32,000 nucleotides of DNA from Nanopusillaceae archaeon (lineage in GTDB: Archaea; Nanobdellota; Nanobdellia; Nanobdellales; Nanobdellaceae): assembly GCA_049974095.1 (NCBI GenBank), contig JBMFJD010000002.1, forward strand, positions 1 through 32,000, read 5' to 3'. The translations under genes were made by a program, and so were the position numbers. Positions 1,741 to 31,577 of this stretch are shown one piece after another. The notes under the pieces are model-generated. The model was not told the DNA's origin. It saw only the letters and a program-made list of their open reading frames with translations, and did not search any database. Each line of letters opens with the position of its first letter. Position 1 is the stretch's first letter.

Positions 1741-1771
1741 ACTTTTAAATTACAATGTTGTTTTTTCTTTT

Positions 1772-2230: not shown

Positions 2231-2231
2231 T

Positions 2232-4201: not shown

Positions 4202-5085
4202 AAGGATTATCATTAAAAGATATAATTGAATATATTGTTTCAGCAGTAATAATAATTATATATACATTATTAATTTTATTTTTCTACGGAATATATGAGA
4301 CAGAATCATATTCTTTACAATCTTATGAAATTTTTACTGAAGCTTTACTTGTAGATAGATTAAACTATTGTTTATATCAATATACTGGAAATCCTTATTA
4401 TTTATTTTATTCTCCAACAAATTCTACATTGTATGAATATTGGGATAATTTATCAAATTGTTATATGAACTTATCAGGATATTTTGAAATACCAGTAGAA
4501 AATTATTCAAACGCAGATTGTTCTTCAGCTGGAATAAAAATAAATAATAATATTGTATCATGTGAAGCAATAGAATATGCAAATATATCTTATAAATCAG
4601 TTCCATATTTTATATTCTATAATTTAAATGACCTAACAAAAAGTTATGTATTTTTTAAAAATGTTACATTTTTATTTGAATATCCTATAGGATATAGAAT
4701 TTTACCACATGCTGTTGAAAATAGTTTAATAACAAAATATGTTACTCCTCCTATGCAAATAAATATAAATAGTAATCTAAATTTATATAATACTTTATCA
4801 GAATATATTTATCAATCATCATCTTATTTAAATGATCTATTATATAATATTACAACAGAAAATAATACATTCCAAGATTTATATTCAGATTGTTTTTCAG
4901 AAAATTATAGATACGGATATTTTATTTTTCCAGTATATACAGGATCTGTATTTGAAGCAAATTATAATGGAGAACCAATAGTTATTGGTTTATATAATTT
5001 TGGAAGGGCAACTAGTGAATTATATAATTTAACATGTGGAGTAACTAATGAAGGCATAATTAATATTTCTACATGTAAAACATGA
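4198..5085 (+). CDS. Surface-cluster protein D (295 aa): prepilin-like N-terminus, heavily sequon-decorated
   Basis: In MKG-LSLKDIIEYIVSAVIIIIYTLLILFF, KGLS fits the archaeal class III cleavage pattern and an acidic residue falls at +5. I count 10 N-X-S/T sequons and 7 Cys. ATGA overlap with C. Confidence 0.75.
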   Translation: MKGLSLKDIIEYIVSAVIIIIYTLLILFFYGIYETESYSLQSYEIFTEALLVDRLNYCLYQYTGNPYYLFYSPTNSTLYEYWDNLSNCYMNLSGYFEIPVENYSNADCSSAGIKINNNIVSCEAIEYANISYKSVPYFIFYNLNDLTKSYVFFKNVTFLFEYPIGYRILPHAVENSLITKYVTPPMQININSNLNLYNTLSEYIYQSSSYLNDLLYNITTENNTFQDLYSDCFSENYRYGYFIFPVYTGSVFEANYNGEPIVIGLYNFGRATSELYNLTCGVTNEGIINISTCKT

Positions 5086-5549
5086 TGAAAAATCAAATTG
5101 GTTTCTTTTTATCAATATTATTTTCAACAATTCTTCTTTTATTTATGATTCTATATTTTTTATATGTAAATACAATACAACCAGCAACATTGACAGGAAT
5201 TGCAACAATACAATTAGAAGGATTAGAATATAGATCTTCAAATGGTTTCTTAGATTCTTTAGTATATTTTGAAGAAGTTCAGGTACCTGTAATTGATTTA
5301 TATGCAGGATATTATAATCAAAATATAGGCAATATAATAATAAATCAAACAATTAACGATACACTATATTATTTAAATCAATCAACAATATACTATTTTA
5401 ATTTTAATGGGAATCAGATAGGGGCTTGTGTAAATAAATATCCAATATATTATAATATATATGTAAATGGAGAAATAGAAAGAATAGAAGTATGTCCGCC
5501 AACCCTTTTATTAATTTACTACTATAATATAATATGCTCTCAAAGCTAA
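5082..5549 (+). CDS. Surface-cluster protein E (155 aa): N-terminal anchor helix
   Basis: MMKNQIGFFLSILFSTILLLFMILYFLYV, then an N/Y-rich domain. ATGA overlap with D. Confidence 0.7.
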   Translation: MMKNQIGFFLSILFSTILLLFMILYFLYVNTIQPATLTGIATIQLEGLEYRSSNGFLDSLVYFEEVQVPVIDLYAGYYNQNIGNIIINQTINDTLYYLNQSTIYYFNFNGNQIGACVNKYPIYYNIYVNGEIERIEVCPPTLLLIYYYNIICSQS

Positions 5550-7081
5550 GATCCTCTTTAGCGCCATTAATTTTAATTATTTCAATAATTATTTTATTAT
5601 TATTTTCTTTCTATTATTTGAATTCAAATACAAATACAGCTTTGTCAAATATGGAATATGTGTCTACAGATTATAAAGATTATCAACTCTTCTTATATTA
5701 TTTATTTGTATATATACCATTTGAAATAAGATATAATTTAATTAATTTGCTTTTATCCCAACTATATTCTAATGGAAATGTTTATAATTTAAATACTGTT
5801 CAATCTTTAAATTATCAACAGTGCCAAATTCCAATTGTTGAAAATCTTACAGAGGAAAAAAATATAATGTATTCCAATAAATTGGTTAGACCTATGTTAT
5901 TTACAAGTCCAGGAAGTAATCAAAATAATATATATAGTTATCATTATAAACTATGTATACCTTTGTTATATGTAGAAAATTATCAAAATGATTTCAAATT
6001 ATATAATTATGTACCAATATCTGATATTCCTTATGAAATACAGTCTGATGTTCAAAATTCATTAAAAAATTTACCACCTTTTATTAAATTAAAAGGTTTT
6101 ATCTATTTAGATGGATCATATATACTGTCATATGCTTTATATAATTTTTCTGTACAAGAAAAATATCAAAGAGAAGTAGAAATTAATAATATAGTTTATA
6201 ATTTATATCCTTATTTAATATATTATAATCAATTAATATGTAATATATATAATCAAACATTTTCTTTCTTTAATTTTGTTATAAATAATCAAAATAATTT
6301 TGCTTCATATCAAAATTATATATATTACAATCAAACATCTGGAGATAATACTTATCTATATTTTTCATTTAATAATACAGGATATTACGCATTAGATCTA
6401 TATTATAATAGTTTATTACCTCCGAATTATCCAAATAAAGCAAACATAACAATTGTATTACCATGTGAATCATTTGGCCAATTATATAATGGGGAATGTA
6501 AAGTAAATAATACTATTGAAAATTATGAAGATAGATGCTTATATGAAGGATCTATAAATTATCAAAATTTATTCCAAGGATTTAATTATGAAGAATATTC
6601 TCAAGAAATATTTAATGGATACTGGTATAAGGTCTCCTCAATAAATTATAATTTATTAAATAAACCTCTACCTCCAGATTTTTTAGATTGTAATGATACA
6701 GTAAAATTTGCAAAAGAGATGATTGGAAATTATACATATTTTACTGGAGGAAATTATCCAATATTGGTACCTGTAGAAGTAAATGTAAATTATAATAATA
6801 TATCTTGTGAATTAATGAATCAAACACTTGTTTTTGGTCCATATAATTTACAAGATTGTATATCTAATTATACAGAAGTTCAAGAAATAATAAATAGTAA
6901 TAATTTGAATAATTTATGTACATTAATTCAATGTTGGCAAAATAATCAATATTATTTTAATTTAACATGTTTTAATTCTCAAACAAATTATTTAAATTCA
7001 TTTAATTATAATTATGAAATATATGAATGGATTAATTTAAATGATAAAAATGTTAATGATTTTTGTAATAATCTACAATAA
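5534..7081 (+). CDS. Surface-cluster protein F (515 aa): N-terminal anchor helix and a large N/Y/C-rich domain
   Basis: MLSKLRSSLAPLILIISIIILLLFSFYYL. I count 13 N-X-S/T sequons and multiple Cys. It overlaps E by 16 nt. Confidence 0.75.
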   Translation: MLSKLRSSLAPLILIISIIILLLFSFYYLNSNTNTALSNMEYVSTDYKDYQLFLYYLFVYIPFEIRYNLINLLLSQLYSNGNVYNLNTVQSLNYQQCQIPIVENLTEEKNIMYSNKLVRPMLFTSPGSNQNNIYSYHYKLCIPLLYVENYQNDFKLYNYVPISDIPYEIQSDVQNSLKNLPPFIKLKGFIYLDGSYILSYALYNFSVQEKYQREVEINNIVYNLYPYLIYYNQLICNIYNQTFSFFNFVINNQNNFASYQNYIYYNQTSGDNTYLYFSFNNTGYYALDLYYNSLLPPNYPNKANITIVLPCESFGQLYNGECKVNNTIENYEDRCLYEGSINYQNLFQGFNYEEYSQEIFNGYWYKVSSINYNLLNKPLPPDFLDCNDTVKFAKEMIGNYTYFTGGNYPILVPVEVNVNYNNISCELMNQTLVFGPYNLQDCISNYTEVQEIINSNNLNNLCTLIQCWQNNQYYFNLTCFNSQTNYLNSFNYNYEIYEWINLNDKNVNDFCNNLQ

Positions 7082-9424: not shown

Positions 9425-10588
9425 ATGGCAGATATTAGGAACAAGCAAGTAGCGGCATCAATGTCTCAGAATGAAAATAAAAAAATAACACTTAGTGTAA
9501 TAAAGGCAGATGTAGGAGGATTTGTAGGACATCACTTAGTACCTTCGGTATTGGAAGAAACTGCAGAAGGAGTATTAGATGAGGCTGTAGGAGAAACAAT
9601 ATTTGATTATGCAGTATCTCATGTAGGAGACGATTTAATTTTGATAATGTTGCATAATAAGGGGGATGACAATCCAGAAATACATGGATTAGCATGGAAA
9701 ACATTCTTAAAATGTACAGATGTTGCAAAAGAAATGGGTTTATATGGGGCAGGACAGGATTTATTATCAAATGCATTTTCAGGTAATGTAAGAGGTTTAG
9801 GACCAGGTGTTGCAGAAATGACATTTACTGTAAGACCATCAGAACCAGTAATTGTATTTGGTGCAGATAAAACAGAAGCAGGAGCATTTAATTATCCATT
9901 ATTCCAAATGTTTGCAAACCCATTTAATACAGCAGGATTGGTTATTGACCCAGATATGCATATGGGATTTAGATTTGAAATATGGGATTTAATAGAACAT
10001 AAGAGAGTATTTATGAATGTACCAGAAGAAATGTATGATGTATTAGCATTAATTGGATCTATTGAAAGATATGCAATAAAAAGAGTTTATCCAAAACCTG
10101 AACATAAATGGCCTGTAGATGAACCAATTGCTGTATCTTCTACAGAAAGATTATTTGAGGAAGCTGGAAGATATGTTGGAAAGGATGATCCTGTAATGGT
10201 TGTAAGGGCACAGAATGGTTTTCCAGCAGTAGGAGAAGTATTAGAACCATTTGCATTCCCATATCTTGTAGATGGATGGATGAGAGGATCTCATTGGGGT
10301 CCATTAATGCCAGTACCTGTTAAAATGGCACATCCATCAAGATTTGATGGTCCACCAAGGGTTGTTGCATTAGGATTCCAAATAAAGAATGAAAAATTAC
10401 ATGGACCAGAAGATATGTTTGATGATCCAGCATTTGACTATGCAAGAGAATTAGCAAATCAAATTGCAGATTATATGAGGAGACATGGACCATTTGAGCC
10501 ACATAGAGTATCATATGAAGATTTAGAATATACAACAATACCTGCAATATTAGAAAAGCTAAAGAACAGGTTTGAGAAATTACAATAG
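9425..10588 (+). CDS. fbp: Bifunctional fructose-1,6-bisphosphate aldolase/phosphatase (class V FBPase)
   Basis: Near full-length motif agreement with archaeal FBP A/P as I remember it: SVIKADVGGFVGHH, GQDLLSNAFSGNVRGLGPGVAEM, GKDDPVMVVR, GWMRGSHWGPLMPV, RFDGPPR, DYMRRHGPFEPHR. Confidence 0.97.
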   Translation: MADIRNKQVAASMSQNENKKITLSVIKADVGGFVGHHLVPSVLEETAEGVLDEAVGETIFDYAVSHVGDDLILIMLHNKGDDNPEIHGLAWKTFLKCTDVAKEMGLYGAGQDLLSNAFSGNVRGLGPGVAEMTFTVRPSEPVIVFGADKTEAGAFNYPLFQMFANPFNTAGLVIDPDMHMGFRFEIWDLIEHKRVFMNVPEEMYDVLALIGSIERYAIKRVYPKPEHKWPVDEPIAVSSTERLFEEAGRYVGKDDPVMVVRAQNGFPAVGEVLEPFAFPYLVDGWMRGSHWGPLMPVPVKMAHPSRFDGPPRVVALGFQIKNEKLHGPEDMFDDPAFDYARELANQIADYMRRHGPFEPHRVSYEDLEYTTIPAILEKLKNRFEKLQ

Positions 10589-17597: not shown

Positions 17598-19871
17598 ATG
17601 AATAGATATATTTATGCACTTTTATTCATTTTCCTTCCATTAAATTTTGTCTTTTCAACCAATAACTTATTTGGGTATCAGATAAAAACAATACCGAATA
17701 ATTTAATTAATACATTTCCATTAAATGGAGGTATTTCCTTAATACATTTTGGAATATTATATCAAAATTATTATTTTCCGATTCCATTAAATGGCAATAA
17801 TTATTTAAATATATATTTTAATTCTAGTAATCCTGTGCAAATTTATATTTTAAATCAATCAAATTATTACAATTTTGAAAATGGTTTAAATTATATTCCA
17901 TATTATGAAAATTATACAAATTTTCTAAATACAAGTATTTATATTCCTGAAGGTCGGTATTATTTAATTATTTTAAACACAAATTATAATAGTGTTTATT
18001 TTTATTTAATATATAATCTTGCAAGTAATTCTATTAATGAATTATATTATCCTATCGGAATTTCAGATTATGGAATATTTTATAACTATAATATAAATCA
18101 AATACAAGGATATAAATATGAAACAAACCTTGTTGTTGGTTCTATATATTTACAAGATTTTAATGTAACTGTAGAACCAATATGTTCTATAAATAGTTTT
18201 TATAATAATGCAGGTTCTATTCAATTAAATGCTGTATTAGAAGTTAATACAATAAATGGACTACAATATTATTGGTTACAAAATGTTTTATTAATAAATA
18301 ATACAGGTGGGTACTATTATATTGAAGATAATATATGGAATTGGACTTCTATCTATGCAAATATTAGCAATAATTCTATAATTGGATCTGGAGATGTATA
18401 TTTAGTTAATTTATTCTCTCAATACTATTATGCTGCAGTTTCAAATATCTATAATTTATCATATCCATTAAATATATATTTGATCATTAATGTATCTCAA
18501 AATAATAGTTATCCAGAAATTCAATTTGGATATTCATTTGATGGGGAAAATATAGTATGGTATGATAATGTTACACTACTTATCCAAAGTACAGATAATT
18601 ATATTATTGTAGAACCAAATATTACTCCATCTGGAACTCCTGAAGATTTAGAATTGGTAATTGGAGGACCTGGAGATGGAGATTGTATATATACAAATAA
18701 TATTAATGGATATTTGGGACTTTATTTCTTATATAATTATAATGGACAATATTATCTTTCTCCAATACTATATTCAGCAAATTTTGGTGAAAGTACTGCA
18801 GAAGCATCAGCAAATATTAATTCATATATTTACTCTCAAGGAATTGTGCAATTAAGTACTGGCATTGGATATCCAACAATATTTTTTAACAATTCAGAAA
18901 ACTATTTTAATTTAACAATCTATTATAATTTTAATAATACAAATATTACATATTCTTTATTTCCATTACAAACGATACAATTGAATTTTTCTAGAATAAT
19001 AAATTATAATAATCAAGAATATCTTCTAAATGGTATATATATAAATGGAGAATTTTATAATATAACAAATATTACATTAATTGCAAATCAAAACTATAAT
19101 ATTTATTTAGACTATGTTCCAATATATAATGTAACAATATTTTACTATGGATTAAATAAAGAAGAAAATTTATTAGAAGTAAGTGGTAATACTCTATATT
19201 TAAATTTATCAAATTATATATACATAAATGATTCTTTTAGATATTATTTGGAAAAAATTATAATAAATGGAATAGAATTTAATCAAAATAACATATATTT
19301 AAACATTACAAACAACTATTTCATATATTTATACTATATTCCTCAATATAAAATTGAAATAAATTTCCCATATAATTATTCAATTAATAATACCCAATAT
19401 GAAGAAAATAATTATTTTTGGATTAATAATAACTCTTATATAAATATAAATATCGATAATTATTATTATTTTAGCTCTTATAGATATTATTGTCCTAAAA
19501 ATAATATAATAATATTTGTTAATAGTTCTGAAAATATAGATCTTTTAAATTATTGTATAATACAATATCAGGTAAATATTTCTTCAGAATTTCCTATAAA
19601 TATATCTATAAATGGTGAAAAAATAAATAATATTAACAATTTTAATGAATATTTAAATAATAGTGATGAAATAGTAATTTATCCAGAAAAATTGACTAGA
19701 AATAATATATTATATAAAGAAATTTATTATTTTGATGGAGAAAATATTACAATAAGCTCTCCAGAAAATATTTATATTAAATTTAATAAGAAAATAGAAT
19801 ATAATTATCCTATTATTGGTGGAATAACATCAATTCCTATTGCTATAATATTAATATATATTTTATATTAG
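17598..19871 (+). CDS. Thermopsin-like (peptidase A5 family) surface glycoprotein with a signal peptide, three C-terminal repeat modules and a C-terminal TM anchor
   Basis: Signal peptide MNRYIYALLFIFLPLNFVFS. YPIGISDYGI, GSIQLNAVLEV...YYWLQNVLLINNTG and IEDNIWNWTS resemble the thermopsin domain as I recall it. I count 33 N-X-S/T sequons. The C-terminus IIGGITSIPIAIILIYILY is hydrophobic. Confidence 0.6.
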   Translation: MNRYIYALLFIFLPLNFVFSTNNLFGYQIKTIPNNLINTFPLNGGISLIHFGILYQNYYFPIPLNGNNYLNIYFNSSNPVQIYILNQSNYYNFENGLNYIPYYENYTNFLNTSIYIPEGRYYLIILNTNYNSVYFYLIYNLASNSINELYYPIGISDYGIFYNYNINQIQGYKYETNLVVGSIYLQDFNVTVEPICSINSFYNNAGSIQLNAVLEVNTINGLQYYWLQNVLLINNTGGYYYIEDNIWNWTSIYANISNNSIIGSGDVYLVNLFSQYYYAAVSNIYNLSYPLNIYLIINVSQNNSYPEIQFGYSFDGENIVWYDNVTLLIQSTDNYIIVEPNITPSGTPEDLELVIGGPGDGDCIYTNNINGYLGLYFLYNYNGQYYLSPILYSANFGESTAEASANINSYIYSQGIVQLSTGIGYPTIFFNNSENYFNLTIYYNFNNTNITYSLFPLQTIQLNFSRIINYNNQEYLLNGIYINGEFYNITNITLIANQNYNIYLDYVPIYNVTIFYYGLNKEENLLEVSGNTLYLNLSNYIYINDSFRYYLEKIIINGIEFNQNNIYLNITNNYFIYLYYIPQYKIEINFPYNYSINNTQYEENNYFWINNNSYININIDNYYYFSSYRYYCPKNNIIIFVNSSENIDLLNYCIIQYQVNISSEFPINISINGEKINNINNFNEYLNNSDEIVIYPEKLTRNNILYKEIYYFDGENITISSPENIYIKFNKKIEYNYPIIGGITSIPIAIILIYILY

Positions 19872-20551
19872 AATTCTATTTTTTCTATTTCTTTTGATGC
19901 CTCTTCTAAATCTTTTAATGTATCTATAGATCTCCAATATATATTATCAAATTTTTCTCCTTTTAATAATCCTTCTTTTGCTAATCTTGGAAATGTTTCT
20001 TTCTCAATATCTCCAATTTCTGGTAAATATTCAAATATTTTATTAGAAAATAAATATACTCCTGCATTTATCCAATATTCTTTTAATATTGGTTTTTCTA
20101 TAAATTCTTTAATTTTATTTCCTTCTAATAATACAACTCCATATGTAGATCTTAATGGAACTAATGAAATTACTCCGATAAAATTATCTAAAGATAACTT
20201 TGAAATATCCAAATTTGTTATTATATCACCATTTATCATTAGAAATTTTTCTTCATTTTTTAATATTTTTTCTGCTTTCTTTAATGCTCCTCCTGTTCCC
20301 AATGGTTTGCTTTCTATAGAAAAATAAAAATTAACATTTAATTTTTCTTCATTTTCTTTACACCATTCAATTAATTTTTCATATTTATATCCTGCTAGCA
20401 GAATTATATCATTAATATTATATTTCTTTAACCAATTTATTTGATATTCTAAAATAGTTTTTCCATTTATTTCAACTAAATTTTTTGGTTTATCTTCTGT
20501 AAAAGGTCTTAATCTTTTTCCATATCCTCCAGCTAATATAATAGCTTTCAT
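19868..20551 (-). CDS. NDP-sugar pyrophosphorylase (sugar-1-phosphate nucleotidyltransferase)
   Basis: MKAIILAGGYGKRLRPFTEDKPKNLVEI is the canonical GGxGxRL nucleotidyltransferase N-terminus. I set the start at 20551 because the 23-codon track extension is a translation of the tRNA-Arg gene. Confidence 0.85.
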   Translation of the reverse strand: MKAIILAGGYGKRLRPFTEDKPKNLVEINGKTILEYQINWLKKYNINDIILLAGYKYEKLIEWCKENEEKLNVNFYFSIESKPLGTGGALKKAEKILKNEEKFLMINGDIITNLDISKLSLDNFIGVISLVPLRSTYGVVLLEGNKIKEFIEKPILKEYWINAGVYLFSNKIFEYLPEIGDIEKETFPRLAKEGLLKGEKFDNIYWRSIDTLKDLEEASKEIEKIEF

Positions 20552-20578
20552 AATAAAAGAATATTTTTTATATTTAAA

Positions 20579-20653
20579 TGGACCCGCGGGGATTCGAACC
20601 CCGGACCTCCCGGACCGCAACCGGGAATTCTATCCAAGCTGAACTACGGGTCC
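20579..20653 (-). tRNA. tRNA-Arg (anticodon GCG); no encoded CCA
   Basis: Reverse complement GGACCCGTAGTTCAGCTTGGATAGAATTCCCGGTTGCGGTCCGGGAGGTCCGGGGTTCGAATCCCCGCGGGTCCA. Anticodon stem CCCGG/CCGGG, loop TTGCGGT. Confidence 0.9.
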
Positions 20654-23245: not shown

Positions 23246-23318
23246 TGCCACCGCCGGGACTTGAACCCGGGGCCTCTGCCTTACCAGGGCAGCGCTCTAC
23301 CAGCTGAGCTACGGTGGC
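23246..23318 (-). tRNA. tRNA-Thr (anticodon GGU); no encoded CCA
   Basis: Reverse complement GCCACCGTAGCTCAGCTGGTAGAGCGCTGCCCTGGTAAGGCAGAGGCCCCGGGTTCAAGTCCCGGCGGTGGCA, with loop CTGGTAA. Its 5' base overlaps the stop codon of the upstream CDS. Confidence 0.9.
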
Positions 23319-24238
23319 TATTTTCCTATTTTCTTTGATACTATATTTATATATTGTGGGCTAATTGTATATAAATACTCTTTCTCACCTTCTTCTCTTA
23401 AAACAATTCCTTCTTTATGCATTTTATTTAAATATTTTGATGCAGTATTTTTTGGAATATTTAATATTCTCGCAATTTCTCTTGCAGATAATTTATTTCC
23501 TATTAATAATTCTAAAATTTTTATTTGGGTTGGTGATAAATTAATATTTTTATTTTCTATTGTAATTTCTTCTACAGGTCCTTTTATTATATTCTCTATT
23601 GGATGATTCATATTTTCTAAAATATTATTTAATTCAATAAATATTGATCTAACATTATCTCCATTTTTTCTAATTATTTTTCTTAAATATTCGCTATCAA
23701 ATTTTATTTTTCCCTTCAATTTCTTATTTATTAATTGTATTATGCCATCTTCATCAGGAAATTTCATTTCTATTTTTTCATGTAATCTATTTAAAAAAGA
23801 AGGAGTAGCATTCATTATTTGTGGAGATGGTTGTATTAACATTATTGAATATGCAATTTTGTTATCATACAAATATTTTAATTTCTTTGAAACTTCTTCT
23901 GGAAAACTATAAAATTCATCTAGGATTAGTACAAGGGGTAATTTATTTCTAAATTTGAAAAATAGAAATTTAATATATAATCCTTCTTCAATTTTCTTAT
24001 CAATATTTTTATCATATTCTCCATTTATATATATTATATTATATTCATCAGATAATTCTTTTTTTATCTTAAATGCTAAAGAAGTTTTTCCAGATCCTAT
24101 TGGTCCATACAATAAAAATATTTCTCCATTTCTTATTGCATTTTTAACTTTTTTAATTATATCATCTACTCCAACTAATTCTTCGTTTGGTCTTATATCC
24201 AAAGGATTCCTTATAAAACCATATTTTTTCCACCACAT
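23318..24238 (-). CDS. AAA+/P-loop ATPase with a C-terminal winged-helix DNA-binding domain (archaeal ATPase or Orc1/Cdc6-like architecture)
   Basis: Walker A LLYGPIGSGKTS, Walker B LVLILDEF, and the C-terminal HTH LSAREIARILNIPKNTASKYLNKMHKEGIV. Confidence 0.65.
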   Translation of the reverse strand: MWWKKYGFIRNPLDIRPNEELVGVDDIIKKVKNAIRNGEIFLLYGPIGSGKTSLAFKIKKELSDEYNIIYINGEYDKNIDKKIEEGLYIKFLFFKFRNKLPLVLILDEFYSFPEEVSKKLKYLYDNKIAYSIMLIQPSPQIMNATPSFLNRLHEKIEMKFPDEDGIIQLINKKLKGKIKFDSEYLRKIIRKNGDNVRSIFIELNNILENMNHPIENIIKGPVEEITIENKNINLSPTQIKILELLIGNKLSAREIARILNIPKNTASKYLNKMHKEGIVLREEGEKEYLYTISPQYINIVSKKIGK

Positions 24239-24239
24239 A

Positions 24240-25856
24240 TTATTTTATTATTTCTTTTAATTCTATATATGTAGCTAAAGACCATAATTGATGTATAGCA
24301 CCTGCTATTTTCATTTCATTAGCGCTAGATCTTTCTGGTAGTGTTCCTATCATTTTAATAAATTCATTATCAGAATTTAATATATTTTCAATTATTTTTT
24401 CATATTTTTCTTTATTTACTTTATATAAAGAAATTGCAGCAATATTGTTTATATATATCCATGAATCTCCATTATGCATTGATTTTCCCTCATTTTTAAA
24501 GTAATTATCTTCATTGCTTTCTCCTATAAAATCTTTATCTAATTTTGATAAACTAGAAAATCCTCCCCAAGATAAATATAAATGATTCATCGAATAATCA
24601 AATATCTTTTCCCATTCATAATTTGAAAACATTTCTGGATAATAATAATAAGATAAAAATATATTACATCTTATTTTCTTATCTTTTAAATCATCATATA
24701 AAGAATAATCTGATAAATAATATCTCCTTATAGAAAATTTTATCTTATCTAATTTTTCTTTATATTCTTCATTTTTATTATATTTATATAAATTATCATA
24801 TAAATTTGCCATAAGAAATTGTATTTCTATTGGGTATTCTCTATTTAAAGTATCCATCCATGTTTCATTTGGATATGCTTTAAATAAGAAATATTTTTCA
24901 TTTAAATAGTTTTCTTCATATAATTTTAATTTTTCAATAATAATATTTACGAGCTTTTTAAATTCATCTTCATTAAATAAATTATTAAATTCGAACAATC
25001 TTTTTGCGTATAATCCAATTCCATCAGAATTACCAATATTTTGATCTTTAATATTCTTTAATCTTCCATCTAATAAAAAATAATTTGAATATTCAATTAT
25101 CTTTTCCTTTACGAGATCTTTATATCCTATATAATATAAACCTGGAAGAGATATTAAAACATCTCTTGTCCATTCTTGGAAATACCATGGAAAACCTGCT
25201 GATATATGATTATTATTTATAAATGAGGAAATTCTTTCTTCAATTAAACTCTTCTTTTTTTCTCTTTTATTCTCTTCTTTTTTCCATATTATTTCTATTT
25301 TATTTCCTATAAATGTAAATGGAGAATATAAATATCTCTCAAATGGAGGGGATTTCTTATATTCATCATAATTATAAAATACTTTTATCCACTTTTCATT
25401 ATTTTCTAAATAATTTTTAAATCCTTTTATATAGATTTCGAAATTTATATCTCCTTTATTAAATTTTATTTTTATATCTTCTTTGTTTATTTCATAATTA
25501 TATATTCTTCCCCATTCATCTATATCATATAAATGCCTTATATCAAATAGAATATTTATTCTAGATTCATCTTTTGTTTTATATACAAGTTTATTCTCTA
25601 ATAATTGATATTCTTCCCAATTTCTATCTTCATAATTTATTTTTATTTTATTAGTATTCTCTAAAATAATTTCTTCAATTTTTTTCTCTTTTATTCTCTC
25701 ATTTTCAATTCTATCTATCACTTTTATATAATAGTTCCTATATGGAAGTAATAAACCAAAATATCTACTATTATATAATAAAGGTAACAAAAAAAAGGCA
25801 TTTTTATTTGTCAATATAGAATAATGAATCTCCTTTAATTTCATAAAATCTTCCAT
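24240..25856 (-). CDS. Glycogen debranching enzyme, amylo-alpha-1,6-glucosidase type (GDE_C/GH133-like)
   Basis: AGFPWYFQEWTRDVLISLPG matches the GFPWF..WGRDT.I(S/A)L signature of the amylo-1,6-glucosidase domain. The (alpha/alpha)6-type C-terminal region (GDSWIYINN) is present. Confidence 0.72.
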   Translation of the reverse strand: MEDFMKLKEIHYSILTNKNAFFLLPLLYNSRYFGLLLPYRNYYIKVIDRIENERIKEKKIEEIILENTNKIKINYEDRNWEEYQLLENKLVYKTKDESRINILFDIRHLYDIDEWGRIYNYEINKEDIKIKFNKGDINFEIYIKGFKNYLENNEKWIKVFYNYDEYKKSPPFERYLYSPFTFIGNKIEIIWKKEENKREKKKSLIEERISSFINNNHISAGFPWYFQEWTRDVLISLPGLYYIGYKDLVKEKIIEYSNYFLLDGRLKNIKDQNIGNSDGIGLYAKRLFEFNNLFNEDEFKKLVNIIIEKLKLYEENYLNEKYFLFKAYPNETWMDTLNREYPIEIQFLMANLYDNLYKYNKNEEYKEKLDKIKFSIRRYYLSDYSLYDDLKDKKIRCNIFLSYYYYPEMFSNYEWEKIFDYSMNHLYLSWGGFSSLSKLDKDFIGESNEDNYFKNEGKSMHNGDSWIYINNIAAISLYKVNKEKYEKIIENILNSDNEFIKMIGTLPERSSANEMKIAGAIHQLWSLATYIELKEIIK

Positions 25857-25907: not shown

Positions 25908-27107
25908 ATGAAAATTTTATTCTTATCTTGGGGTATACTTCCTCAAAAAACCGGAGGTCTAGAAAAAGCAACGTATTATTATTTTAAATATCTTGATTCC
26001 TTTGATAATGAAGTATATTTGGTTATTCCAAATTTAACAAGTGATGTAATAAATTTTTGGAAAGATAAAACAAAGAAATCAAAAATATTTGGATTAAATA
26101 TTCCAATATATAGATCATATATAGATTATTTTAAGTACGAATCTTTTACTTTGTATAGAAGGAATATAATTGACTATAGAAAATCTGTAATGGAATATAA
26201 AGAAAAGGTAATAAGGATTGTAAAAGAATTAAATTTGGATTTTGATATAATTTATTCGTATGATTGGTTAACAGCACCCGCAGCAGTTGAATTAAAAAAA
26301 ATTTATAACAAGCCATTAGTAATTCATTTTCATTCTTTATCTTATGATAGAGTTGGTGCGAATCCTGATTTATTAAAATACTTGGTTGAATATGATTATG
26401 GAATAGAATTGGAAGCATGTAGAGTTGCAGATAAAGTTGTTACTGTAAGTAAAAGAGAAAAGGATGTTTTAGTAAAATATTATAATTGTCCAGAAGAAAA
26501 AATTGAAGTAATATATAATGCTCCAGATGATGACTTTTCAATAAAAGATAAAATAGAAAATAAAATAAAAGAGAAATATAAAATTGTATTATATTTAGGG
26601 AGAATGACATTACATAAAGGACCAGATTATTTATTATTGGCTGCAAAAAAAGTATTGGAAAAAAGAAAGGATGTATTATTTATATTTGCAGGAACTGGAG
26701 ATATGATAGATAAATTAATAAAAATGGCTGCAGATTTGAATATATCAAAAAATGTTATTTTTACAGGTTGGATTGATGATAATTTGGCAGAATATTTGTA
26801 TTCAATTTCGGATATCTTTGTTTTACCATCAGTTTCTGAACCTTTTGGTTTAACACCATTTGAGGCATTACAATATAAAGATTTTATAATAGTATCAAAA
26901 CAATCTGGGGTATCTGAAGTATTAAAAAGTGTATTAAAAATAGATTTTTGGGATGTAGATAAATTAGCAAATTATATTTTAGCATTATTAGAATATCCAA
27001 AGTTGGGAGAATTTGAAATAAAATTATGTTTAGAAGATATAAAAAATTTATCTTGGAAAGATTCAGTTAATAAGCTTTTGTATATTTTCAGAAGCTTGGG
27101 TAGATAA
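25908..27107 (+). CDS. glgA: Glycogen synthase, GT5 archaeal/bacterial type
   Basis: It carries the N-terminal KTGGL motif (LPQKTGGLEKA) and the GT-B C-terminal motif SEPFGLTPFEALQ. Its overall layout resembles Pyrococcus glycogen synthase as I recall it. Confidence 0.75.
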   Translation: MKILFLSWGILPQKTGGLEKATYYYFKYLDSFDNEVYLVIPNLTSDVINFWKDKTKKSKIFGLNIPIYRSYIDYFKYESFTLYRRNIIDYRKSVMEYKEKVIRIVKELNLDFDIIYSYDWLTAPAAVELKKIYNKPLVIHFHSLSYDRVGANPDLLKYLVEYDYGIELEACRVADKVVTVSKREKDVLVKYYNCPEEKIEVIYNAPDDDFSIKDKIENKIKEKYKIVLYLGRMTLHKGPDYLLLAAKKVLEKRKDVLFIFAGTGDMIDKLIKMAADLNISKNVIFTGWIDDNLAEYLYSISDIFVLPSVSEPFGLTPFEALQYKDFIIVSKQSGVSEVLKSVLKIDFWDVDKLANYILALLEYPKLGEFEIKLCLEDIKNLSWKDSVNKLLYIFRSLGR

Positions 27108-28253
27108 ATCAATATCTCTTAGTATATTCATATAGGATATAAAAGCATCATAAGGTGTTACAAATGCTTCTTCTCTAAAATATTTATGTACATCTCCATC
27201 AGCATTATATTTTAAACTCATATAATAGAAATTATCTGATGTAGATAAATATCTTAATATTTTCAATATTTCTTCATTATTTTTATTTTTATGATATAAT
27301 TCTTTTAAATAATCTAATGCTTCCCTTTGTATACTATCTCCAAACCATGCAGACAAGTCTCTTTCAATATCTGCCCAGGATATCAAATTCTCTATGCTTA
27401 ATTCTCCCTTTGCTTCAAATTTATTTGCAGCTTCAATAATTTTATATGTTTTGAAATATTTTTCTTTTCCAATATATTCAAATAATTTATTCCAAAATTC
27501 AAATATCCCTGCTTCTTTCCATATATGTTCCCCAATTGTTTCAAAATCCATAAAAATATTTATTATATCTCCAGGAGTATTTTTTAACCATAGATAATAT
27601 TTATCTGCAGTCAATGGATATTCTTTCCAATCCCTATTTGTAAATCTAAATGCTATATCATCAGATAGTCTATAATTTCTTAATAATAATCTTAAGTTTG
27701 TTCCTTTTAATTTATATACATAATTAGGACTCCTCCATCCTAATATTTTTTCTGTTCCTTCAGTCAATGCAGCTTCAAATCCTAAAGAATATACAATGTT
27801 TCCAATATCATTATTAAATACAAGTTCAAAATTTCTGAAGGATTTTGCTTTATATCCAAATATTTCTTTTATTTTTTTTCTGTGAATTTTTATCTGATTT
27901 ATAAATTCTTCTTTATCCATTAAATATGAAACTGAATGATAATATGTTTCTGCAACAATTTCAACATTTCCTGTATCAACAAGTTTTTTCCATAGTTCTA
28001 ATATTTCAGGATGATATAATTCTAATTGTTCAATCAATGTACCAGAAATTGAAAAAGAAAATTTTAAATCATATTTTGTTATAGCATTATATATTATCTC
28101 TAATGCAGGTTTATAGCATTTATTTACAACTCTGTCCAAAATTCTTTTATTTATTTCGTCATTGAAATAATTTTTTGATCCAATATCGAAAAAAGAATAG
28201 TATCTTATTCTTCTAGGTTGATGCGCATGGAAATAAAATACTATGCCTGGCAT
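27063..28253 (-). CDS. Glycoside hydrolase family 57 enzyme (alpha-amylase-like)
   Basis: The N-terminus MPGIVFYFHAHQPRR (the GH57 HQP motif) and FMDFETIGEHIW are present. Its 3' end overlaps glgA by 45 nt, convergently. Confidence 0.8.
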   Translation of the reverse strand: MPGIVFYFHAHQPRRIRYYSFFDIGSKNYFNDEINKRILDRVVNKCYKPALEIIYNAITKYDLKFSFSISGTLIEQLELYHPEILELWKKLVDTGNVEIVAETYYHSVSYLMDKEEFINQIKIHRKKIKEIFGYKAKSFRNFELVFNNDIGNIVYSLGFEAALTEGTEKILGWRSPNYVYKLKGTNLRLLLRNYRLSDDIAFRFTNRDWKEYPLTADKYYLWLKNTPGDIINIFMDFETIGEHIWKEAGIFEFWNKLFEYIGKEKYFKTYKIIEAANKFEAKGELSIENLISWADIERDLSAWFGDSIQREALDYLKELYHKNKNNEEILKILRYLSTSDNFYYMSLKYNADGDVHKYFREEAFVTPYDAFISYMNILRDIDLSTQASENIQKLIN

Positions 28254-28290
28254 AAATATTTTTTAAATAAATGATAATATAAATTTATTT

Positions 28291-28611
28291 ATGATAGAAG
28301 TAAAAAATGATAAAGAAGTTTTTATCACTATAGATGGACAAAAATTATATGGTCTTTATGATCTATTAATTTGGTTATATAATGCAGATGAAAATAATTT
28401 TTTATATCATCAAAAAGGAGGGCACTTTTACAATTGGATATATAATTCATTAGAAGAAAAAGATGTAGCAGAAGAAATAAAGAATATAAATAGTAGAGAA
28501 GAAATGATAGAAATAATTGAAAGATATTTAAGAGGATATGAATTATATGTAAAGAAAAAATATAAAAAGGAAGAGGCAGAAATAGAATTTATTAAAAGAT
28601 TCGAATTATGA
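28291..28611 (+). CDS. Small soluble protein (106 aa), unknown; first gene of a three-gene coupled unit
   Basis: FITIDGQKLYGLYDLLIWLYNADENNFLYHQKGGHFYNWIYNSLEEKDVAEEI. Its stop overlaps the next start (ATGA at 28608). Confidence 0.6.
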   Translation: MIEVKNDKEVFITIDGQKLYGLYDLLIWLYNADENNFLYHQKGGHFYNWIYNSLEEKDVAEEIKNINSREEMIEIIERYLRGYELYVKKKYKKEEAEIEFIKRFEL

Positions 28612-29273
28612 TACTATCATTTATTTCTCTTAAAGGAGGTGTTGGAAAAACAACATTATCAAATAATTTAGCAGCATATTTAAGGAAATTCTATAATTAT
28701 AAAGTTTTAATAATAGATACAAATGGTATATATTCATCTAATTTTATATTTCTTAAAGATAAAAAGTTGTTTGGAGATAGATTGTGGCAAGATATTAAAA
28801 TATTGCCATTTTTCCATTTAAAAATAACAAATGGATTACCAATGAATTATGAAAATGATTTGATTTATTTAAGAAGAATATATGATGTAATAATATTTGA
28901 TGTATTTCCAGATCCAAGCTTAATATATTCTATTGAAAAAATATCTGATACAAATTTCTTAGTTTTAAATCCAGATTTATATTCATTATATGCAAATAAA
29001 AGATTATATGAAAATCTGAATAAGGATAAAATAAAAATAATTTTAAATAAATATGATAAAAGCATTGATATAGATTTTATAGAAGAAATATTTGGAAAAG
29101 AAATATATTCTGTAATACCATATATAAAAGAATTTAATGAATATCAATTTCAATATACTCCAATAGCATTTTATAATGAAAAATCAAAAGCATTAAAATA
29201 TATAGATGAATTAGCATATTTAATTACTGGAAGAAAAAGAAAAAAAGGAATATTAGATATTATATTTAGATGA
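28608..29273 (+). CDS. ParA/MinD-family P-loop ATPase (deviant Walker A)
   Basis: SLKGGVGKTTLSNNLA (the KGGxGKT motif), VLIIDTNG and VIIFDVFPD. It has ATGA overlaps with both neighbours. Confidence 0.8.
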   Translation: MILSFISLKGGVGKTTLSNNLAAYLRKFYNYKVLIIDTNGIYSSNFIFLKDKKLFGDRLWQDIKILPFFHLKITNGLPMNYENDLIYLRRIYDVIIFDVFPDPSLIYSIEKISDTNFLVLNPDLYSLYANKRLYENLNKDKIKIILNKYDKSIDIDFIEEIFGKEIYSVIPYIKEFNEYQFQYTPIAFYNEKSKALKYIDELAYLITGRKRKKGILDIIFR

Positions 29274-30907
29274 TATTATTTGAAGAATCTTGGGAAGTAT
29301 GTAATAAAGTTGGGGGAATATATACTGTTTTATCTACAAAATCAAAATATATAAAGGAAAAATATGGAGATAACTATTTTTTAATAGGACCATATAAAGA
29401 AAATCCTGAATTTATAGAATTAGAAGAACCAAAATATATAAAAGAAATAAATTTTGAATTAGAAGATATAAAAATTCATTATGGATATTGGGATATTGAA
29501 GCAAAACCAAAAGTATTTTTAGTAGATTTCAAAGAATTTATGGAAAAAGAAAAAAATTTATGGAAATATAAGTTTTGGGAATGGTATAAAATTGATTCTT
29601 TAAAATCCGATTTTACATTTGATGAACCATTTTCATGGTCTGTAGCAGTTGGTATATTTTTAGAAAAATTAGAAAAATATTTTAATGATGTAAAAATTTT
29701 ACATGCACATGAATGGTTATCTGGAGGGACAATTTTATATATTAAAAAGAAAAATTTGAATTATAAAACAATATTTACAATTCATGGAACTGTAATTGGA
29801 AGAAGTTTATCGGAAAGAAATGTAAATGTATTTGAAGTATTAGATAAAATTGATCCGGATAAAGATTCATATAGATTAGGAGTACATTTTAAACATCAGT
29901 TAGAAAAAGCAACAGTATTAGATACAGATATATTTACTACAGTTTCAGATAATTTAAATGAAGAAGCTCAAAAAATATTTGGAAGAAAAGCAGATTATAT
30001 TACATATAATTATATTAATGTAAAAGAAAAAGAATTATATTATTATTATGAAATTGGAAGGAAATGGATTAATGAATTTTTAACATGGTATTTTTATCCA
30101 TATTATGATTTACCAGAAAATTATCTATTAATTTATACAATTGGGAGATATGAACCATATAATAAAGGAATAGACTTATTTATTGATATATTAAAATATT
30201 TGGAAGAAAATCAAATAGATACAATTGCATTTATATTTGTTCCATATTATTATGAAGGAATAGATGAAAATATAATAAAAACATACAAAGATTATATTAA
30301 TTTAAAGAAATATCTTGAAGAAAATCAATATGAAATAATAAGATCTTTATATAATAAAAAAAATATATTAAATTATCTTGATAGAATAAAAAATAGAAAT
30401 CCTCCAATTGTTACTCATAAGACAAATGAATCATTTATTATAAATAAATTAAAATCTGTAGGATTAAATAATAGTAAAGATAATTTTGTAAAAGTAATAT
30501 ATGCTCCAATATATTTAGGAAAAGATATAATATTTAATTTAGAACAAGAATATTTATTACCTGTATTTGATTTTGGAATATTTTTATCTAGATACGAACC
30601 ATATGGATATACGCTATTGGAAGCATTATATAATTTTGTCCCAATAATAATATCAAATAAAACAGGATTTTATAGAAATCTTTTGAATAAAGGAATAAAT
30701 CATGATTTTATAATATCTGTAGATCCATATAATATAGAAAATGAAAAAGAGAATATATTAAGAAAAATTATTAAATATAAAAATTTAGATTTATATAAAA
30801 AATTAGAAATTAAAAAACAAATGTATGAAATATCAAAGAAATATAGTTGGAAGGATAATATTAAAGAATATATTAATATTTATGAAAATATTTTAAAAGG
30901 TCAATAA
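29270..30907 (+). CDS. Glycogen synthase of the eukaryote-like GT3 family
   Basis: The N-terminus LFEESWEVCNKVGGIYTVLSTKSKYIKEKYGDNYFLIGPY is close to the metazoan/fungal glycogen synthase N-terminus as I recall it (FEVAWEVANKVGGIYTVL.TK.....GDNYFLVGPY). It also has HAHEWLSG and the C-terminal YEPYGYTLLEA. Confidence 0.85.
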   Translation: MILFEESWEVCNKVGGIYTVLSTKSKYIKEKYGDNYFLIGPYKENPEFIELEEPKYIKEINFELEDIKIHYGYWDIEAKPKVFLVDFKEFMEKEKNLWKYKFWEWYKIDSLKSDFTFDEPFSWSVAVGIFLEKLEKYFNDVKILHAHEWLSGGTILYIKKKNLNYKTIFTIHGTVIGRSLSERNVNVFEVLDKIDPDKDSYRLGVHFKHQLEKATVLDTDIFTTVSDNLNEEAQKIFGRKADYITYNYINVKEKELYYYYEIGRKWINEFLTWYFYPYYDLPENYLLIYTIGRYEPYNKGIDLFIDILKYLEENQIDTIAFIFVPYYYEGIDENIIKTYKDYINLKKYLEENQYEIIRSLYNKKNILNYLDRIKNRNPPIVTHKTNESFIINKLKSVGLNNSKDNFVKVIYAPIYLGKDIIFNLEQEYLLPVFDFGIFLSRYEPYGYTLLEALYNFVPIIISNKTGFYRNLLNKGINHDFIISVDPYNIENEKENILRKIIKYKNLDLYKKLEIKKQMYEISKKYSWKDNIKEYINIYENILKGQ

Positions 30908-30920
30908 ACAAAATAAATAT

Positions 30921-31577
30921 ATGACAAGCTTTGCGAGCTTTATAATTAATCTAATAAACTATTCTGGGATAAGTTTTATATTTTTATTTATATTTTATTT
31001 CGCAGTATTTTATTCATTATTATTATTTTTATTTAAATTTATTCAGATAAAAGATCAACAAAAACAACAAAGTCAAGGACAAAAAAAGATAGAAATAGAT
31101 AAATTTATTGCTTTATTAATTTCATTATCTGCAGCATTCTTTTTAGCATCTTTTTCAGGTTACTATTTATTTACTCAATATTTTTTGGCATTTTTAGCAT
31201 CAATGATTATTGCTTTATTCTTCTTTATTTTAATAGTAAATTTATTAACAAATGGCGCATTCTTTAATTATTTATCAAATTTATTTAGCAATCCTCAAAA
31301 CTTATCTACATCTAGAATAAGATATGTTCCAATATTTACTATATTAGTGATAGTTCTTTTTGCATTACTTGCAATATATTATGCATATCAAAGTTATTTT
31401 TTATCATTAACAGTAGGAACAAGTTCTCAATCCCGAATGTATCAAATAACATTTAATCAATATATTTTATTTGCAGTAATTTTCTTTGTCATTTTAGGAG
31501 TATTTATTATAGCAATGAGTTCTGGAGGAGAAACACAAAAGGGAGGAGGTGGGGGAACTCAAGCAAAAAGTAAATGA
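30921..31577 (+). CDS. Multi-pass membrane protein (218 aa) with a Gly-rich C-terminal tail, unknown function
   Basis: About 5 hydrophobic helices, a Q/K-rich loop and the tail SSGGETQKGGGGGTQAKSK. Confidence 0.6.
   Translation: MTSFASFIINLINYSGISFIFLFIFYFAVFYSLLLFLFKFIQIKDQQKQQSQGQKKIEIDKFIALLISLSAAFFLASFSGYYLFTQYFLAFLASMIIALFFFILIVNLLTNGAFFNYLSNLFSNPQNLSTSRIRYVPIFTILVIVLFALLAIYYAYQSYFLSLTVGTSSQSRMYQITFNQYILFAVIFFVILGVFIIAMSSGGETQKGGGGGTQAKSK

Follow-up and report, generated by a model that had tools for sequence, protein, structure and literature searches.

A small protein and a MinD-type ATPase are encoded between a GH57 glycoside hydrolase and a GT3 glycogen synthase in a Nanopusillus-like nanoarchaeon, inside its glycogen gene cluster, and a functional link of this pair to glycogen metabolism is likely. 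The small protein belongs to the DUF5752/OrfY family, which often accompanies glycogen genes in archaea. The reading that we favor, with a confidence that falls a little short of even, is that the pair forms an accessory module of the glycogen cluster, in which the ATPase would act as an ATP-gated tether or scaffold and the DUF5752 protein as its adaptor. Glycogen storage by DPANN archaea is still described as uncertain, archaeal GT3 synthases are uncharacterized, and their priming and organization in DPANN are unknown (PMC11046441). For these roles, the accessory proteins whose genes lie between GH57 and GT3 are obvious candidates.

Within the window (the whole stretch of 32,000 nucleotides that was analyzed), three genes follow one another on the forward strand: a 106-aa single-repeat DUF5752/OrfY-like protein (28291..28611; core at about residues 8-85 and a long C-terminal helix at residues 69-105), a 221-aa divergent archaeal MinD-type ATPase with a deviant Walker A (28608..29273; assigned through Pfam CbiA, AF2/Foldseek and an NJ tree), and a 545-aa GT3-family glycogen synthase (29270..30907; Pfam Glycogen_syn, 4.3e-69). 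The original prediction had the three genes chained by ATGA stop-start overlaps at 28608 and 29270, which is confirmed by the ORF coordinates, the overlaps read from the sequence being 28608-28611 and 29270-29273. It had also derived a functional link from them. However, gene overlaps are usual in this compact genome (4-bp overlaps at 6 of the 16 same-strand gene junctions of the window and an overlap of any length at 9 of the 16, according to the ORF list), and thus the ATGA junctions are not special and prove little by themselves; the link is likely on account of the conservation of the arrangement, the association of DUF5752 with glycogen genes and the occurrence of a second DUF5752-coupled ATPase lineage in glycogen clusters. 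The proposed check, whether the trio is a unit in other genomes, gave a positive answer, since it was found in Nanobdella, Nanopusillus, Nanobsidianus, deeper nanoarchaeal contigs and one MAG labelled Aenigmatarchaeota. The gene order and the overlapping or abutting junctions are kept at ATPase identities of 64% (Nanobdella), 54% (L004), 47% (L010 and L007) and 42% (L006), and GT3 is directly 3' of the ATPase in all the nanoarchaeal-type loci examined. The persistence of this order in relatives in which ATPase identity falls to 42-47% exceeds what chance would produce. The whole region, including SBDS, proteasome, TFB and Lon genes, is syntenic across Nanoarchaeota, so that a conserved order inside this group is weak evidence.

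The GH57 gene (27063..28253, reverse strand; Pfam Glyco_hydro_57, 2e-76) is a divergent neighbor of the small protein, and the A+T-rich region of 37 bp that separates it from the small-protein operon (28254..28290, read from the sequence) is the sole intergenic region flanking the pair. Beyond it lie a 399-aa glycosyltransferase of the GT4/GT5 type (GlgA-like; 25908..27107, forward strand; Pfam Glycos_transf_1, 3e-32, and Glyco_transf_5, 3e-12), also present in the cluster at related loci, and a GDE_C amylo-alpha-1,6-glucosidase, i.e., a debranching enzyme (24240..25856, reverse strand; Pfam GDE_C, 6e-20), whose orthologue in N. acidilobi is annotated as a glycogen debranching enzyme and is present in the proteome. 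Adjoining GDE_C, here and also at L002 and L004, there is an AAA+ ATPase fused to an ArsR/TrmB-type wHTH (23318..24238, reverse strand; Pfam AAA_14, HTH_5 and TrmB), which is probably a regulator of the glycogen cluster. On the other side, 13 bp after GT3, a conserved multi-pass membrane protein (30921..31577, forward strand) may be the product of the final gene of the operon. It matched nothing in Pfam or NCBIfam; counterparts that align with it occupy the same position at L002, L004, L006 and L007 (alignment A7), and 5 TMD are listed for its orthologue in N. acidilobi. Both glycosyltransferases were detected in the proteome of N. acidilobi, like the debranching enzyme, and neither the small protein nor the ATPase was, an absence that is uninformative about the function of the pair.

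Scans of the 106-aa protein against Pfam and NCBIfam gave no family above threshold, so its assignment to DUF5752 needed profiles and structure. Its PF19027 score is 13.6 bits (E 0.044) and that of the Nanobdella orthologue 15.7 bits, with a cut-off of 23, which the small proteins of L008 pass with 29.9 and 25.3 bits. A DUF5752 HMM made without any sequences of the nanoarchaeal clade matches the 106-aa protein at 3.6e-14, profile A3 finds PF19027-annotated proteins at 1e-28 to 1e-10, and the family profile A4 matches the sequence of OrfY of Thermoproteus tenax (4cso) at 3.7e-5. OrfY was also the top PDB match of the AF2 model (pLDDT 93.4) in Foldseek, with a probability of 0.98 and a TM-score (query) of 0.50. 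The fold and the motif F..DG...L..L...F.[YH]H....(ND)F.NW....L..LA are common to both proteins, with F11, G16, F37, H40 and W49 as the conserved residues in ours. On the other hand, OrfY has 216 aa in a tandem of two repeats, whereas the 106-aa protein has one repeat followed by the long C-terminal helix and stays under Pfam's own threshold. Profiles and model together thus indicate a divergent single-repeat member of the DUF5752/OrfY family.

No published function of OrfY or DUF5752 was found in our literature search. The PDB molecule name of 4cso is “ORFY PROTEIN, TRANSCRIPTION FACTOR,” and this label given by the depositors would favor transcriptional control, with DUF5752 as a small regulator that binds DNA at carbohydrate operons and is modulated by the MinD-like ATPase. 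There are precedents for such a connection, as FleN/FlhG modulates FleQ and Soj modulates DnaA and transcription, and structures of FleN and FlhG were among the fold matches of our ATPase. Besides, clusters often encode their own regulators, and the K/R-rich tails of some DUF5752 proteins could bind DNA. Nevertheless, we regard this role as quite unlikely. Foldseek detected no HTH, RHH or other DNA-binding fold in the 106-aa model, OrfY being the only meaningful match. Tandem paralogues, C-terminal TM anchors and fusions to GH57 or transketolase, all of them found in this family, are atypical of transcription factors, and the nanoarchaeal cluster already has the AAA+/TrmB-type wHTH gene beside GDE_C.

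Among 80 metagenomic DUF5752 loci, 56 could be evaluated upstream, and in 34 of these a GH57 gene was located at no more than 800 bp upstream or was fused to the domain (GH57::DUF5752 fusions at L120, L121 and L148). A Cytophagaceae bacterium has two DUF5752 copies next to a GlgX-like enzyme and a GH65. The clusters contain one to three tandem paralogues, transketolase fusions are found besides those to GH57, and in the clusters devoid of the ATPase the paralogues often have TM segments at the C-terminus or N-terminal tails rich in K/R. The ATPase was present at only 3 of the 80 loci and is thus an optional add-on. The small protein had been proposed as the adaptor, and its kinship with a family whose members adjoin GH57, or are fused to it, at most of the loci that could be evaluated lends real support to this idea. 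The proposal of a partner dedicated to the GT3 synthase has fared worse, since the association extends to the glycogen cluster and DUF5752/GH57 generally and is not specific to GT3, and a second clade of coupled ATPases (see below) includes GH15 loci without GT3. DUF5752 was also found away from glycogen genes (L094 and L096) and fused to KaiC-like and HerA-like ATPases, so that its use as a module may be more general. The family is large (5,381 cluster representatives at 50% identity), and the structure of one of its members is solved; its strong genomic association with GH57 and glycogen clusters provides a concrete testable hypothesis.

The 221-aa ATPase passes Pfam CbiA (PF01656) with 51.7 bits (cut-off 25.4; 1e-13), and its AF2 model (pLDDT 91.7) had 300 PDB matches in Foldseek at E<=0.001, led by MinD, ParA and Soj, the best TM-score being 0.78 to the MinD of A. 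fulgidus (1hyq). The best NCBIfam family is minD_arch (TIGR01969), at 43.8 bits for a cut-off of 201.75; minD_bact (TIGR01968) gave 26 bits, also below its cut-off (212.9). The deviant Walker A KGGVGKTT (residues 9-16; 28632..28655), in the context SLKGGVGKTT, has the signature lysine K9 as well as K14 and is invariant in alignments A1 and A6, as is D98 of the Walker B IIFD (28890..28901). The original prediction had considered both Walker A' and Walker B intact. This is true of Walker B and of the first Asp of Walker A' (D37-T38-N39; 28716..28724), but the catalytic second Asp is replaced by N39, at the position that we take to be the equivalent of MinD D40 and Soj D44. N39 aligns with the residue that is D in 4v03 and A in 4v02, two entries of Aquifex MinD. 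The Asn is invariant in both DUF5752-coupled ATPase clades (alignment A2), and a DxN Walker A' is also common among other DPANN MinD-like proteins. Because of this replacement, hydrolysis would be expected to be slow or partner dependent, which speaks against a ParA ratchet powered by hydrolysis.

The ATPase ends in a flexible basic and amphipathic tail (GRKRKKGILDIIFR; 29229..29270) that is a candidate membrane-targeting sequence. Its end (KKGILDIIFR) resembles the C-terminus of a bacterial MinD at L041 (EKKGFLSRLFGR) and those of archaeal MinD-like proteins at L026 and L029, and the pattern TGxRKxxxIFxxIF is conserved throughout the nanoarchaeal clade. In the model, pLDDT is <50 at residues 215-221, and there is a short detached helix. 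The hydrophobic moment of the best 10-mer is 0.50, a score that does not separate MinD from ParA tails in the small set compared, so that the argument for membrane targeting is one of motif resemblance only.

In a simple NJ tree, in which the deep branches are uncertain, the ATPase was nested in the DPANN/archaeal MinD-like radiation, away from the ParA/Soj group with the DPQ motif. Judging from the tree, the best NCBIfam family and the Foldseek matches, the initial description as ParA/MinD-like can be narrowed, and the protein is an archaeal MinD-type ATPase and not a Soj/ParA. The background set was obtained by an ATPase profile search of genome contigs with the pattern KGGVGKTT (at least 600 matches); those listed were mostly generic MinD, ParA, FlhG and CpaE loci and included no known nanoarchaeal genomes. 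A second clade of ATPases coupled to DUF5752 (L008, L092, L126 and L130) was monophyletic in 97 of 100 NJ bootstraps. Its gene orders are different, either GH57-DUF-ATPase-DUF-GH15 or GH57-DUF-DUF-ATPase-GT3-PGM-GDE, and the ATPase of L008 reaches 158 bits with minD_arch, still below the cut-off. A single origin, with the two coupled clades as sisters, was rejected (0 of 50 and 1 of 100 NJ bootstraps). The nearest relatives of the second clade are MinD-like genes of Pacearchaeota with neither glycogen nor DUF5752 neighbors, and thus this ATPase lineage can work without glycogen genes. Among the matches listed, the DPANN MinD-like loci L011-L032 had no DUF5752 ORF, and glycogen genes were found near the MinD-like gene only at L017 and L019 (2 of 19), a frequency not clearly above chance; we do not claim that DPANN MinD-like genes are generally linked to glycogen.

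These data bear on the possibility that the pair is a bystander, i.e., a general MinD/ParA system acting in chromosome segregation, in the choice of the division site or on another cargo, that came to be in the cluster by genome compaction and inherited synteny. The synteny of the neighborhood in Nanoarchaeota and the frequency of overlaps would agree with it, and so would the absence of glycogen neighbors for most of the DPANN MinD-like genes sampled (among the matches listed). A sister MinD-like gene is moreover retained in Pacearchaeales, which are largely without glycogen synthase (bioRxiv 10.64898/2026.05.13.725050). Yet we consider it the least probable of all the explanations, given that the DUF5752 partner family itself marks glycogen clusters and that two separate ATPase clades are coupled to it in glycogen clusters of different gene order. 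There is no ParB-, SegB- or MinE-like partner beside the pair, the ATPase falls outside the Soj/ParA group, and N. acidilobi has a second MinD/ParA paralogue of arCOG00589 (Nps_03280) elsewhere in the genome. The alternative that accompanied the original prediction, a chromosomal ParA that merely sits here, is accordingly weakened by Nps_03280 and by the separate second clade.

Returning to the accessory module that we favor, we infer that the two proteins interact, that the ATPase binds a membrane and has low activity, and that the pair has some effect on glycogen. The DUF5752 domain would dock on the glycogen machinery, be it GH57, the glycosyltransferases or the glucan itself. ATP binding would drive the formation of a sandwich dimer of the ATPase, and this dimer would bind the DUF5752 protein and so anchor or scaffold the glycogen enzymes, or the particle, at some surface in the cell, for which the membrane is the most likely candidate. 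With slow or partner-dependent hydrolysis, it would behave as an ATP-gated tether or scaffold, in the manner of BcsRQ or MinD, and not as the fast Brownian ratchet of ParA. In the lineages that lack the ATPase, the DUF5752 paralogues may provide the anchoring directly through their own TM segment or basic tail. A broader version, which we put forward as speculative and rather doubtful, is a glycogen-organizing system of DPANN in which docking through DUF5752 would link the storage particle, together with its enzymes, to the membrane or nucleoid, with gating by a dedicated MinD-type ATPase in at least two lineages. If true, it would be the first ParA/MinD-family system with a glycogen particle or glycogen metabolon as cargo, and it could secure the inheritance of the energy store at division in cells that are 100-300 nm across. 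According to the original prediction, no ParA-type partner dedicated to a glycogen synthase or granule was known, and indeed no prior description of such a link was found in our literature search on ParA/MinD and glycogen. The genomes of these ectosymbionts are of ca. 0.6 Mb, and the retention of two accessory genes in them implies that the pair matters.

Several known ATPase systems can be compared with the pair. MinD (bacterial MinCDE; archaeal structures 1g3q, 1ion and 1hyq) is similar in the deviant Walker A with its signature lysine, in the fold (best TM-scores of 0.76-0.78 to archaeal and Aquifex MinD), in the best-scoring family and phylogenetic placement of the ATPase and in a basic amphipathic tail that resembles MinD-type ends. 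However, our ATPase is far under the minD_arch cut-off and has Asn instead of Asp in Walker A', its partner is a DUF5752 protein and its context is glycogen metabolism; no MinC- or MinE-like protein was found beside the pair or among the scanned proteins of the window (about half of its ORFs). The positioning pairs McdA-McdB, ParA-ParB, ParF-ParG and SegA-SegB likewise combine, in two genes, a small adaptor with a ParA/MinD-fold ATPase, the concept of a cytoplasmic cargo marked by its adaptor is shared, and SegA (7dut) is the best PDB sequence match of our ATPase (1.4e-4). Nonetheless, the ATPase lies outside Soj/ParA, the loss of the catalytic Asp makes a ratchet doubtful, and the tail suggests binding to the membrane rather than to the nucleoid. 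The small protein, whose gene comes first in the nanoarchaeal clade, has no similarity to McdB or ParB, and in the place of the HTH or RHH centromere-binding partner of ParABS and SegAB there is a DUF5752 domain.

A parallel in genetic context is BcsR-BcsQ of the enterobacterial cellulose synthase (6yay and 6ybb), where a small protein and a ParA/MinD-fold ATPase are likewise encoded with a polysaccharide-forming glycosyltransferase. BcsQ is an ATP-bound, hydrolysis-poor dimer that helps to assemble or localize the synthase. A strict analogy would have the pair stabilize, activate or assemble GT3 and/or GH57, with no positioning and with an incidental tail. The tight coupling to GT3 in the nanoarchaeal clade fits this regulatory role, N39 suggests a hydrolysis-poor, ATP-locked dimer, both BcsQ structures were among the Foldseek matches, and JGI names many of the orthologues “BcsQ”; the GH57::DUF5752 fusions also suggest that the domain acts on or with the enzyme. 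Against it, and the reason why we deem it unlikely, the ATPase scores 30.9 bits with the NCBIfam BcsQ family (TIGR03371), for a cut-off of 157.85, and DUF5752 is not homologous to BcsR. The match to Pfam CBP_BcsQ (22 bits versus 21.3) covers the N-terminal P-loop region only. In addition, the neighboring enzyme of the second clade varies (GH15 or GT3), and the TM-anchored and basic-tailed DUF5752 paralogues point to localization over pure allostery. The Walker A of BcsQ is degenerate, whereas KGGVGKTT is retained here, and the polymer, an alpha-glucan, is made inside the cell by a soluble GT-B enzyme, in contrast to cellulose, secreted by a membrane GT2. With a glycogen-linked protein whose partner is unrelated to theirs, the range of what ParA/MinD ATPases are known to organize (DNA, division sites, flagella, chemoreceptor arrays, carboxysomes and a cellulose synthase) would extend to a storage polymer.

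The genes around the trio form a glycogen cluster. The 106-aa small protein (28291-28611, + strand; no family at normal Pfam thresholds), the 221-aa MinD-type ATPase (28608-29273, +; Pfam CobQ/CobB/MinD/ParA family PF01656, 1e-13) and the 545-aa GT3 synthase (29270-30907, +; Pfam Glycogen_syn, 4e-69) are linked by ATGA overlaps at 28608 and 29270, both present as originally predicted. By Pfam, the same cluster contains a GDE_C debranching enzyme (24240-25856, -), a GT4/GT5 GlgA-like transferase (25908-27107, +), a GH57 (27063-28253, -) that starts 37 bp from the small ORF, and a fusion of an AAA+ ATPase with an ArsR/TrmB-type winged helix (23318-24238, -) that probably regulates the cluster. 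The GT4/5 and GH57 genes are convergent, with 3' ends overlapping by 45 bp (27063-27107). A multi-pass membrane protein of no known family (30921-31577, +), starting 13 bp after the GT3, may be the final gene of the trio's operon and is a candidate membrane partner. A functional link had been judged likely from the coupling itself. Since 4-bp overlaps are frequent here (6 of the 16 same-strand junctions counted from the window ORF list), overlaps alone are weak evidence; the link between the small protein-ATPase pair and the glycogen cluster is nonetheless supported by the wider evidence.

The contig comes from a hot-spring metagenome. The proteins share 70-72% identity with their Nanopusillus and Nanobsidianus counterparts, and the Nanobdella counterpart of the ATPase is 64% identical. 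An archaeal FBP aldolase/phosphatase (9425-10588, +; Pfam FBPase_3, 4e-173) and an NTP_transferase-family gene (19868-20620, -) fit a route from gluconeogenesis through NDP-glucose to glycogen. Six consecutive ORFs at 448-7081 (+; 430, 297, 358, 295, 155 and 515 aa), the last five chained via start/stop overlaps, matched no Pfam family at 1e-4; the proteins listed for the syntenic stretch of Nanopusillus acidilobi are uncharacterised, and most have 1-4 predicted TM segments.

The order GH57 (divergent), small protein, ATPase, GT3 and membrane protein was found again in five loci: L002 (Nanobdella aerobiophila), L004 (a deeper nanoarchaeal contig, ATPase identity 54%), L010 and L007 (47%, the latter from a MAG labelled Aenigmatarchaeota) and L006 (42%). 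In all five the trio co-occurs as a unit, with overlapping or abutting junctions. The membrane protein keeps its position after the GT3 in L002, L004, L006 and L007, and the AAA+/winged-helix gene adjoins GDE_C in L002 and L004 just as it does in the window. When the window is compared with L006, the ATPase (42%) and small protein (46%) are less similar than the enzymes (53-73%), so the accessory pair evolves faster yet is retained. However, the SBDS, proteasome alpha, TFB and Lon neighbourhood is also syntenic in the trio-bearing genomes, and conservation of the trio inside the nano clade is thus only modest evidence.

The small protein belongs to the DUF5752/OrfY family. In a lenient scan, it and its Nanobdella orthologue matched DUF5752 (PF19027) below the Pfam threshold (E 0.044 and 0.0098), and two small proteins that do pass this threshold lie on either side of a distant relative of the ATPase (P0087, 30% identical). 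The small-protein profile recovers PF19027-annotated proteins at 1e-28 to 1e-10, an HMM of exclusively non-nano members matches the window protein at 3.6e-14, and the two share the motif F..DG...L..L......F.[YH]H....(ND)F.NW...L...LA. The AF2 model (pLDDT 93.4) consists of a beta-hairpin, four short helices and a long C-terminal helix, and its sole meaningful PDB match is Thermoproteus tenax OrfY (4cso; probability 0.98, TM-score 0.50). The family profile matches OrfY twice (3.7e-5), which makes OrfY a tandem DUF5752. The family has 5,381 representatives (50% identity, E<=0.001), and a literature search for DUF5752 or OrfY found no paper. The PDB label of OrfY speaks for transcriptional control by the pair, a reading that we consider improbable given the architectures found elsewhere.

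Scanning metagenomes with an alignment of DUF5752 proteins gave at least 80 loci (501 of 600 listed candidates confirmed), annotated by phmmer and HMM probes made from enzymes of earlier loci. The 80 loci listed hold 123 DUF5752 genes and, among these matches, the usual layout is GT4/5, GH57, one to three DUF5752 and then GT3 or GH15, with GDE_C nearby; GH57 is fused or lies <=800 bp upstream in 34 of the 56 upstream-evaluable loci listed. DUF5752 is fused in frame to the GH57 C-terminus (491-492 aa; L120 4842-6317, L121 8771-10246, L148 4051-5529) and to a transketolase C-terminal half (427-430 aa; L113 8111-9403, L114 15488-16771). Paralogues of one cluster are often differentiated into plain forms, forms with a K/R-rich N-terminal tail and forms with a C-terminal transmembrane segment; such tandem sets follow GH57 in L113, L114, L146, L135, L142, L149 and L158. 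A Cytophagaceae bacterium has two copies adjoining a GlgX-like enzyme and GH65. The association has exceptions: some copies are distant from all sugar genes, and glycogen genes lie within 5 kb in 6 of 13 listed loci with >=3 kb on both sides. KaiC-like ATPases, and very large HerA/DUF87 proteins that have CarboxypepD_reg domains, also carry fused DUF5752 repeats (P0167, P0176, P0181, P0214), so the domain partners several kinds of P-loop ATPase, not MinD-like ones alone. That DUF5752/OrfY accompanies archaeal glycogen clusters as an accessory family is the wider and firmer result, and the small protein is supported as the glycogen-specific component of the pair. The fusions, membrane anchors and tandem paralogues argue against transcriptional control, and against a MinD system that is a mere bystander here, which we regard as the least probable reading.

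The ATPase has a deviant Walker A (KGGVGKTT, signature lysine K9), a Walker A' D37-T38-N39 and a Walker B D98. Walker A' and B had been called intact; D37 and D98 are indeed present, but N39 aligns with the Asp of Aquifex MinD 4v03 that is Ala in 4v02, which is the family's catalytic residue (E. coli MinD D40, Soj D44, Get3 D57). Replacement of this Asp blocks hydrolysis without blocking ATP-dependent dimerisation. Both DUF5752-coupled ATPase clades have an invariant Asn at this position, and the residue is frequent among other DPANN MinD-like proteins too. The fold matches MinD, ParA, Soj, FlhG and BcsQ, with top TM-scores for archaeal and Aquifex MinD; minD_arch is the best NCBIfam family, at a score far below cut-off. 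The C-terminus GRKRKKGILDIIFR, flexible in the AF2 model, resembles the ends of bacterial MinD (L041, EKKGFLSRLFGR) and archaeal MinD-like proteins. In NJ trees the ATPase falls within the archaeal/DPANN MinD-like radiation, apart from Soj/ParA-type sequences, which weakens the alternative of a chromosome-segregation ParA raised in the original prediction. Directly downstream of DPANN MinD-like genes, several unrelated loci carry a putative HIT-family gene, called by eye from an N-terminal C-x-F-C motif (L011 12153-12542, L012 10803-11150, L014 11262-11621, L017 9633-10133, L019 8489-9007).

The ATPase genes of L008, L092, L126 and L130 each overlap DUF5752 genes and form one clade (97/100 NJ bootstraps), whose sister (81/100) is a set of Pacearchaeota MinD-like genes with no DUF5752 or glycogen neighbours at their loci. 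A sister relationship to the nano clade was recovered in 1/100 bootstraps. This is a second, independent ATPase-DUF5752 coupling, found in the orders GT4/5, GH57, DUF, ATPase, DUF, GH15, GAPDH (L008, L092), GT4/5, GH57, DUF, DUF, ATPase, GT3, PGM, GDE_C (L130) and ATPase, DUF (L126, a short contig). With an ATPase in 3 of the 80 DUF5752 loci among the matches listed, the ATPase is an optional addition. The N. acidilobi gene table has a second arCOG00589 ATPase (Nps_03280) at another genome site, preceded by an uncharacterised ORF (Nps_03275), so the cluster-encoded Nps_00380 is not its sole MinD/ParA. Both the second clade and this paralogue weigh further against the bystander and transcriptional readings. 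The N. acidilobi proteome contained the debranching enzyme and both glycosyltransferases, but neither Nps_00380 nor the small protein Nps_00375 was detected in it.

We favour the pair as an ATP-gated tether or scaffold for the glycogen enzymes or particle; pure enzyme regulation by the pair is unlikely, if somewhat less so than the other two alternatives. The ATP-bound MinD-like dimer would bind the DUF5752 protein and, so bound, would anchor enzymes or the glycogen particle, probably at the membrane via the ATPase C-terminal tail. In clusters without the ATPase, TM-anchored or basic-tailed paralogues may do the same job. A review from 2024 on alpha-glucan metabolism in prokaryotes describes archaeal GT3 synthases as uncharacterised and glycogen priming in DPANN as an open question; in the first 300,000 of its 445,374 characters, "ParA" is absent as a word and MinD appears once (PMC11046441). 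Literature searches combining ParA/MinD with glycogen returned nothing relevant, in agreement with the earlier statement that no ParA-type partner of a glycogen synthase had been described. What is new here is the partner family and the metabolic context of a MinD/ParA-fold ATPase. In the NJ tree the nearest outgroup of the nano-clade ATPase is the 236-aa ParA/MinD-like ATPase of L020, whose gene start is overlapped by 4 bp by the gene of a 63-aa putative winged-helix protein, called by eye (19377-20275), a pair like the classical adaptor-ATPase partition pair. For the glycogen-associated ATPase, N39 lowers the likelihood of a classical hydrolysis-driven ParA ratchet and raises that of a BcsQ-like, ATP-locked scaffold.
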